Virus record (IMG/VR): IMGVR_UViG_2529292836_000013
Reading direction: 5' to 3' (one strand)
DNA from: a virus
Taxonomy: Duplodnaviria > Heunggongvirae > Uroviricota > Caudoviricetes
DNA length: 6,857 nt
Shown piece by piece: positions 5,861 to 6,211 of this stretch. The first letter of the stretch is position 1, and each line of letters opens with the position of its first letter. The notes below the pieces were generated by a model. The model was not told where the DNA came from, did not search any database, and was given only the letters and a program-made list of their open reading frames with translations. The translations under genes were made by a program, and so were the position numbers.

Positions 5861-6211
5861 ATGACTCAAAACTATGAACTGATTGTGAAAGGGATCCGCA
5901 ATTTTGAGAATAAAGTTACGGTAACTTTAGCGTTACGGGACAAAAAACGCTTTGACGGTGAAATTTTTGACCTGGACATCTCGCTGGACCGTGTTGAAGG
6001 TGCCGCGCTGGAGTTTTATGAGGCAGCAGCCAGAATGAGCATCAGACAGGTCTTCCTGGATGTTGCTGCCGGGTTATGTGAAGGGGATGAGCAGTCGCCG
6101 GAAAAGCGCCCCGTAATTTTAGAGGCGCAGAATGTATGGATAACCTACAAAGGAAAGCTACCGGGAAGAATTACTGGTTCTCTGAAGACTCCTCCGGAAT
6201 CACAACCTTAA
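5861..6211 (+). CDS. Hypothetical acidic protein, 116 aa, inserted between pinholin and endolysin
   Basis: ATG at 5861 is 4 nt after the holin stop, with GGAGAG SD 8 nt upstream. No hydrophobic segment and no motif I recognise. Confidence 0.6.
   Translation: MTQNYELIVKGIRNFENKVTVTLALRDKKRFDGEIFDLDISLDRVEGAALEFYEAAARMSIRQVFLDVAAGLCEGDEQSPEKRPVILEAQNVWITYKGKLPGRITGSLKTPPESQP

Follow-up and report, generated by a model that had tools for sequence, protein, structure and literature searches.

An intact YdfR/DUF1327 family gene between holin and endolysin of a Qin-like prophage, probably an accessory late gene

The lysis cassette of phage 21 is presumably S-R-Rz, free of inserts between the holin and the endolysin gene. 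In the viral DNA analysed here (IMG/VR record IMGVR_UViG_2529292836_000013; 6,857 nt, hereafter the window), a 116-codon gene lies between a holin of this type and its endolysin. To which family does this gene belong, and does its product take part in lysis or share no more than a transcript with the lysis genes? The initial annotation, made from the sequence, regarded the gene as unrecognised and offered two options, a lysis regulator or a late-expressed accessory factor. The evidence assembled below favours, on balance, an intact member of the YdfR/DUF1327 family that serves as an accessory late gene of a Qin-like prophage and whose product may bind RNase E.

Position, translation signals and prophage setting

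The late region around the gene contains the following features:

5574-5602, plus strand: terminator-like hairpin with 12 pairs and a T-run behind it, some 40 nt ahead of the holin start
5641..5856, plus strand: gene for an S21-type class II holin (pinholin family), 71 aa; PF04971 ('phage P21 holin S'), 112.5 bits
5846..5853, plus strand: Shine-Dalgarno (SD) sequence GGGGAGAG of the ydfR-family gene, within the last holin codons and ending 7 nt before the ATG
5861..6211, plus strand: ydfR-family (DUF1327) gene, 116 aa plus stop; PF07041, phrog_2091/phrog_406, RefSeq WP_000193264.1
6212..6274, plus strand: 63-nt spacer that separates the ydfR stop from the endolysin start
6275..6592, plus strand: 5' part (106 codons) of a SAR-type endolysin gene; Phage_lysozyme match, partial according to RefSeq
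6593..6857, minus strand: terminal part of an IS66-like ISCro1 element, with the 3' end of the transposase gene, as annotated in RefSeq NZ_CP115984.1

The ATG at 5861 is the earliest possible start after the upstream in-frame stop in the ORF listing, and only four nucleotides (TTCA) separate it from the holin stop TAA at 5854-5856. The sequence thus bears out the description of a well-formed gene that starts 4 nt behind the holin and has its SD in the 3' end of the holin gene. Simple consensus scans found no sigma-70-like promoter between 5000 and 6600 (0 vs. 1.8 expected) and no terminator 3' of the gene. Because the gene directly follows the holin gene and uses a holin-embedded SD, it is transcribed together with the Q-dependent late and lysis genes, as the initial annotation had presumed for its co-expression with the lysis genes, and translational coupling to the holin is probable. 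The terminator-like hairpin upstream of the holin is strong, and late transcription past it would need antitermination by Q.

Downstream of the gene, no obvious SD could be read in the 63-nt spacer ahead of the endolysin ATG. The stretch CCTGATAAATATCC directly precedes this ATG (6235-6277) and has no purine-rich SD. The endolysin leader is kept in all ydfR-containing cassettes compared, and its last ~20 nt ahead of the ATG are conserved across all cassettes compared, whereas in the insert-free cassette of VT2-Sakai the endolysin uses the holin-embedded SD. In an alignment with UTI89, ~290 bp that carry a reverse-strand ORF are present in UTI89 and absent from the window, which otherwise has the UTI89-type arrangement.

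Both neighbours are what they had been taken for, a pinholin (PF04971, 112 bits) upstream and a SAR endolysin (a Phage_lysozyme fragment) downstream. The holin is 79% identical to EssQ of E. coli K-12, has a pI of 9.2, and is named 'class II holin family protein' in RefSeq. Its first codons (5641-5652) include Met at positions 1 and 4 (MDQM...). Such a two-Met start is typical of S21, but the extra residues here are M-D-Q and not M-K-S, so that the longer product has an acidic residue where the S21 antiholin has a lysine. Relatives of the window holin start with MYQM or with just one Met. The idea that YdfR stands in for a missing antiholin was rejected, since both types of holin N-terminus occur with ydfR and the type found in the window often occurs without it. 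The endolysin fragment is 91% identical to aa 1-106 of RrrQ, and a Gly/Ala-rich N-terminal segment and an E35-x8-D44-x5-T50 motif can be read from its sequence. ISCro1 cuts the endolysin gene after codon 106, and the remainder is found beyond the insertion sequence in the source genome; related genomes match the window only as far as 6593. The lysis cassette of this prophage is thus defective, although ydfR and the holin gene are intact.

The window is 100% identical to part of the chromosome of E. coli NCCP 13717 (RefSeq NZ_CP115984.1). The gene order of the matching stretch is dicB, ydfABC and hokD, then DUF968 (frameshifted), rusA and Q, two tRNAs and iraM, an esterase remnant, the holin gene, ydfR and the lysozyme gene interrupted by ISCro1, and finally Rz and iss. 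This is a Qin-like lambdoid prophage of E. coli. The features of the window upstream of the holin are:

988-2036: DUF968 gene, broken by a frameshift into two ORFs that overlap (214 + 181 aa); a pseudogene in RefSeq
3385-3460 and 3561-3635: tRNA genes downstream of Q (ARAGORN, RefSeq)
4334-4523, plus strand: sRNA STnc100 (Rfam, 132 bits)
4549-4884, minus strand: iraM-like anti-adapter gene adjoining STnc100
5130-5491: two short ORFs of 67 and 53 aa, which align, respectively, with ~58 positions at the start and ~50 at the end of the 634-position phrog_143

The 67-aa ORF also matches DUF1737. Together, the two short ORFs look like the ends of a large NanS-p/YjhS-like esterase gene ('SASA family') with an internal deletion between them; an esterase gene of this kind precedes the holin gene in Stx phages. 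The host prophage is evidently decaying, whereas the ydfR-family gene itself is intact. STnc100 and the iraM-like gene both lie within the late region, in the interval between Q and the holin gene. One of the two tRNAs has the anticodon CAT and is assigned to Met by ARAGORN and to Ile by RefSeq; the other is a tRNA-Arg(TCT).

Family membership and protein architecture

The product of the gene matches PF07041 (DUF1327) with 142.4 bits (E 5.3e-42), far above the Pfam gathering cut-off of 25 bits, and positions 1-112 of the protein align to positions 1-92 of the 93-position model. Over its full length it also matches phrog_406 and phrog_2091, which like the other PHROGs of the family (1085 and 2735) are labelled 'unknown function'. 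RefSeq names the protein 'YdfR family protein' (WP_000193264.1), a name that the phage records carry as well, and BLASTP against YdfR of E. coli K-12 yields an E-value of 2e-45 with 80% identity over aa 1-74, beyond which the tails differ. Membership in the YdfR/DUF1327 family is thus virtually certain. The view that the gene matches nothing familiar has to be given up in the light of DUF1327, PHROGs 406 and 2091, the RefSeq name, K-12 ydfR and the presence of the family in ~80% of complete E. coli genomes. The holin-ydfR-endolysin arrangement is already known too, as hundreds of phage records and thousands of bacterial ones carry it in their annotation. The initial annotation had allowed for a gene that such lysis cassettes carry routinely and that is well characterised; routine it proved to be, but not well characterised. 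As a discovery the gene is therefore minor, since it is catalogued, named in RefSeq and present in the reference strain K-12. What is modestly new is its architecture, its translational slot and the placement of its distant relatives, as described below.

That the ORF is a real gene and not a chance reading frame follows from the Pfam E-value of 5e-42, from dN/dS values of 0.1-0.5, and from homologues in other genera that reach down to 25-30% identity. Pairwise comparisons with diverged alleles give a dN/dS of 0.2-0.45 for codons 1-72 and of 0.1-0.5 for the tail. Hundreds of genomes carry the frame unbroken and with an identical or near-identical sequence, and functional inducible phages have kept it as well.

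Further searches were less informative. NCBIfam has no model for the YdfR/DUF1327 family, and a PDB sequence search with two profiles returned no match. Structure comparison of the core domain gave no significant fold match, all matches being within the noise for a beta3-alpha unit. Homology thus placed the protein in DUF1327/YdfR, but structure comparison added no fold assignment. The dsRBD (alpha-beta-beta-beta-alpha fold) was considered and set aside, as the structural similarity was not significant. A PADLOC search with the window protein, the long family forms, one distant relative and the neighbouring reverse-strand ORFs found nothing at E<=0.1; the PADLOC library consists of defence proteins and not of anti-defence proteins. 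The literature is thin: DUF1327 is mentioned in passing in one paper, and functional data are found only in a study of K-12 YdfR (PMC13232886).

The window protein is a soluble, mildly acidic, two-part protein. Neither a membrane segment nor a signal-like N-terminus was found by hydropathy and sequence inspection, the highest 19-residue Kyte-Doolittle mean being 1.03, vs. 1.70 in the neighbouring holin. The absence of a membrane segment noted earlier is thus confirmed, and the description as acidic holds in the sense of a pI of 5.23 but needs to be toned down, because 18 acidic (D+E) face 16 basic (K+R) residues. The two parts are:

5861..6079, plus strand: N-terminal core domain, aa 1-73, with antiparallel strands at 5-14, 18-27 and 34-43 and a helix at 50-72
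6080..6208, plus strand: C-terminal tail, aa 74-116 (GLCEGDEQSPEKRPVILEAQNVWITYKGKLPGRITGSLKTPPESQP), conserved among Escherichia alleles

AlphaFold models the core as three antiparallel strands followed by a 23-residue helix (beta-beta-beta-helix) with a mean pLDDT of 85.4. The tail is modelled poorly (pLDDT < 50). Only the core is common to the window protein and to standalone relatives of 72-76 aa, and in a wide alignment only Y5, Y53 and E54 are invariant or nearly so. The window-type tail is missing or replaced in K-12 YdfR, mEp460 and L014. Accordingly, DUF1327 proteins fall into several length classes: a tailless form of 72 aa (L014), a form of 103-104 aa with the K-12-type tail, a form of 114-116 aa with the GLCEG...KTPP tail of the window protein, a form of 176-183 aa in which this tail is followed by a coiled-coil-like extension, and fusions of 263-287 aa. 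The 116-aa form is one of these classes and does not differ in substance from the rest of the PF07041/PHROG family. Pfam and PADLOC searches of the tails and extensions of the long forms revealed no recognisable domain. Among Escherichia alleles the core shows dS from 0.4 to saturation and dN of up to 0.5, whereas dS in the tail is 0.1-0.3. The core is thus far more diverged than the tail, a pattern which, judged from these sequences, is the one expected from mosaic recombination. This architecture of a core with an exchangeable tail is a modest new point of the present analysis. Some family members of 170-196 aa (P0073, P0096, P0189 and P0191) have an internal duplication or a tandem pair of cores, and many fragmentary or fused variants exist in the databases.

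The closest well-known counterpart is YdfR of K-12 (b1555, UniProt P76160), encoded in the Qin cassette essQ-ydfR-rrrQ-rzpQ. It belongs to the same Pfam family and occupies the same place, 4 nt after the stop of an S21-type holin and upstream of a SAR-type lysozyme. Between the two loci, the core (aa 1-74) is 80%, the holin 79% and the lysozyme 91% identical. The tails, however, are unrelated: K-12 YdfR (103 aa) ends in a 30-aa segment predicted to be helical (PMC13232886), whereas the window protein (116 aa) has its conserved tail of 43 aa. In addition, the K-12 ydfR stop overlaps the rrrQ start, in place of which the window has the 63-nt spacer.

An optional insert behind holins and in tail modules

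The extent to which ydfR accompanies S21-type holins was surveyed by BLAST counts and by inspection of about 15 loci. Among 50,697 phage records, 436 contain an S21-type holin (tblastn) and 101 a DUF1327 homologue, and all of the latter are Escherichia, Stx or 'Enterobacteria' phages. In the listed records that have both genes, holin and ydfR are adjacent (e.g., LC727888.1, holin 22913-23125, ydfR 23133-23468). In complete E. coli genomes, ydfR-like DNA occurs in 4,349 of 5,426 (~80%), at 8,617 places and up to 10 times per genome; holin-like DNA was found in 4,296 genomes of the same set, at 13,417 places. The insert is thus present in about a quarter of the S21-type cassettes of phages and in roughly two thirds of the chromosomal ones, both fractions being rough because the BLAST counts differ in sensitivity and the phage records include redundant Stx phages. 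The family itself is small, with 319 clusters at 90% identity and 88 representatives at 50% identity among 1.84 billion proteins.

Insert-free cassettes show where ydfR has been placed. Both cassettes checked, essD-rrrD(-rzpD) of DLP12 in K-12 and S-R of VT2-Sakai, agree with the archetypal layout named in the initial annotation and encode holin and endolysin of the same families as the window. The endolysin of these cassettes begins either right at the holin stop or 4 nt behind it, where the window has ydfR. In VT2-Sakai, the junction GGGGAGAG-TAA-4 nt-ATG that precedes ydfR in the window precedes R, and ydfR thus sits exactly in the slot of the endolysin. The endolysin start is displaced 414 nt downstream, behind a leader without a clear SD. 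That ydfR takes over the translational slot of the endolysin is a further modest new point of this study.

In the ten Escherichia loci inspected, ydfR always follows an S21-type holin directly and was seen nowhere else; the gap is 4 nt in the window and 3-4 nt in K-12, UTI89, Stx2-86, YYZ-2008, Stx2k, Stx1_499, mEp460, PhiR12 and L014. Behind ydfR, however, the cassettes vary. UTI89, Stx2-86, Stx2k and PhiR12 carry a reverse-strand ORF after ydfR, and the following small ORFs were located in the holin-endolysin interval:

L015, 2811-3083, minus strand
L016, 2643-2957, minus strand
L018, 1811-2186, minus strand
L021, 1958-2218, minus strand

The reverse-strand ORFs after ydfR had no significant Pfam or PADLOC match. 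Their occurrence marks the S-R junction of S21-type cassettes as an insertion hot-spot. In phage phiSTEC1575-Stx2k (L018, 1281-3299), the place of the SAR lysozyme behind the S21 holin and ydfR is taken by two further holin genes and an M15 peptidase. This single phage thus carries two holin systems.

In a genome scan with the single protein, close relatives were confined to Escherichia species except for two MAG contigs (L027, Veillonella parvula; L029, Bacillota), which encode K-12-type ydfR with 74-80% identity to the query and are most likely mis-binned Escherichia prophage contigs. One family record assigned to 'Enterococcus faecalis' looks like a similar case of mis-assignment.

The more distant relatives have a different genomic context. 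Standalone core-domain proteins of 72-94 aa are encoded in Serratia, Sodalis and metagenomic phages, and all cases that could be located lie in lambda-like tail modules. The Serratia gene lies between the tail chaperone (DUF1799) and tape-measure genes, that of Sodalis within an accessory island flanked by tail genes M and L, three genes of metagenomic phages between tail genes L and K, and a further distant relative in an accessory island before tail gene J. All of them are on the strand of the tail genes, usually beside other small accessory genes, and no lysis gene is nearby. Scans with simple consensus patterns for promoters and terminators around these homologues gave results not above chance. 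Thus, the trait shared by the family is the late operon of a lambdoid siphophage and not lysis. The occurrence of the core domain in tail modules outside Escherichia is another modest new point; it argues against a lysis-specific role and for a late-expressed accessory protein whose function is independent of gene position. Taken together, ydfR is a common but optional insert behind S21-type holins, and the family is mobile. In the survey of cassettes for the insert suggested by the initial annotation, the gene was present in some and absent from others (a homologue in 101 phage records, the holin in 436).

Possible functions

Experimental leads exist for K-12 YdfR. A two-hybrid screen picked up ydfR codons 1-72 three times, and the corresponding fragment interacted with Rne(1-597), full-length Rne and Rng (PMC13232886, 2026). 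The full-length YdfR fusion interacted with Rne(1-597) only, and Rne(1-598)-FLAG co-eluted in pull-downs with Strep-YdfR (PMC13232886). DNase-resistant nucleic acid, that is RNA, co-purified with YdfR, but a contaminant as the binder could not be excluded by the authors; overexpression of YdfR changed few transcripts and did not impair growth, and ydfR was essentially silent in standard culture (PMC13232886). The data on RNase E thus stem from two-hybrid, pull-down and overexpression work. The region of K-12 YdfR that interacts with RNase E (aa 1-72) is the part that is conserved, with 80% identity, in the window protein. The Keio ydfR deletion was also among the mutants that scored in a CPRG screen for envelope defects (supplement of PMC3879167). 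This phenotype could be a polar effect, caused by read-through from the kan cassette that drives the downstream endolysin gene rrrQ.

In light of these data and of the distribution of the family, the ydfR product is probably a late-expressed accessory protein that interacts with the host, neither belonging to the lysis machinery nor regulating it; the second option of the initial annotation thus fits the evidence best. The protein would be made late, from the lysis-gene transcript, and might be regarded as 'moron-like'. Lambdoid morons include lambda bor and lom and HK97 gp15. As with these genes, ydfR is optional between collinear genes of the late operon and lies at module junctions, and its homologues occur at varied positions. 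Unlike morons with a promoter of their own, however, ydfR relies on the late transcript and the holin-embedded SD; a promoter and terminator of its own were not detectable, which is a weak negative given the simple consensus scans used. As the most likely specific activity we tentatively propose, by analogy with the K-12 protein, that the core domain (aa 1-72 in K-12 YdfR) may bind the N-terminal catalytic half of RNase E, possibly together with RNA. Such binding could modulate RNA decay late in infection.

Known regulators of holins and endolysins, such as the antiholins S21-71, lambda S107, T4 RI and P1 LydB, provide the standard against which a role in lysis has to be judged. From the cytoplasm, YdfR could target the pinholin, for example the basic C-terminal tail of the latter, or the release of the SAR endolysin, and thereby tune the timing of lysis. 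The main support for such a regulator is the constant position 3-4 nt behind an S21-type holin, with the SD embedded in the holin gene, at every Escherichia locus inspected; the contrast between a mildly acidic YdfR-family protein and a basic holin (pI 9.2) and the CPRG score of the Keio mutant (PMC3879167 supplement) point in the same direction. However, unlike the known regulators, the window protein is encoded by a separate ORF and is not an alternative holin product, and it lacks a membrane or periplasmic segment. Nor is there constant co-occurrence with the lysis system: about 77% of the phage records with an S21-type holin have no ydfR, including VT2-Sakai (holin 97% identical), and the DLP12 cassette lacks it within the same K-12 genome. 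Moreover, ydfR is also found upstream of the M15-peptidase lysis set of phiSTEC1575-Stx2k, its presence is uncorrelated with the type of holin N-terminus (MKSM vs. MDQM/MYQM/single start), its distant relatives in tail modules have no lysis gene nearby, and overexpression of YdfR caused no growth defect (PMC13232886). With cassettes that work without ydfR around a near-identical holin, lysis regulation, the first option of the initial annotation, becomes quite improbable. The gene might instead be moron cargo of another kind, with a target other than RNase E, for example an inhibitor that serves anti-defence, superinfection exclusion or some other form of host takeover. This is rather unlikely, as fold matches remain within the noise for a beta3-alpha unit, PADLOC with its library of defence proteins returned no match, and the single experimental interaction reported is the one with RNase E (PMC13232886). 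Finally, a gene remnant in decay or a chance ORF, as might occur in a defective prophage, would agree with the frameshift in DUF968, the esterase reduced to its two ends and the endolysin cut by the insertion sequence, and also with the many fragmentary or fused family variants in databases. Yet the frame is intact in hundreds of genomes, dN/dS is below 0.5, and the gene is kept in inducible phages and across genera, all of which makes non-functional filler very improbable.

For the preferred reading, an accessory host-interaction protein, a broader version can be envisaged, although we consider it unlikely. According to it, YdfR/DUF1327 would constitute a lambdoid-phage family of late-expressed factors that bind RNase E and RNA and reprogram RNA decay or protect the late transcript. 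The beta3-alpha domain would dock on the catalytic half of RNase E and perhaps present or shield RNA, the exchangeable tails would tune specificity, and as a result either the long late transcript would be protected or the decay of host RNA re-programmed just before lysis. Phage-encoded modulators of RNase E are known, namely phiKZ Dip, the T7 gp0.7 kinase and T4 Srd. If the K-12 result carries over to the window protein, the likeness to these proteins would be that of a small RNase E-binding phage protein, a functional analogy only. Should the broader version hold, most E. coli strains would harbour a temperate-phage counterpart of Dip, Srd and gp0.7.

With a presence in ~80% of complete genomes, ydfR ranks among the most widespread genes that prophages have brought into E. 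coli. As the core domain occurs free of lysis cassettes outside Escherichia, functional work may turn from lysis timing to host interaction. Independently of function, inserts between S and R move the endolysin start away from the ribosome-binding site within the holin gene, a point of relevance to the engineering and modelling of such cassettes.
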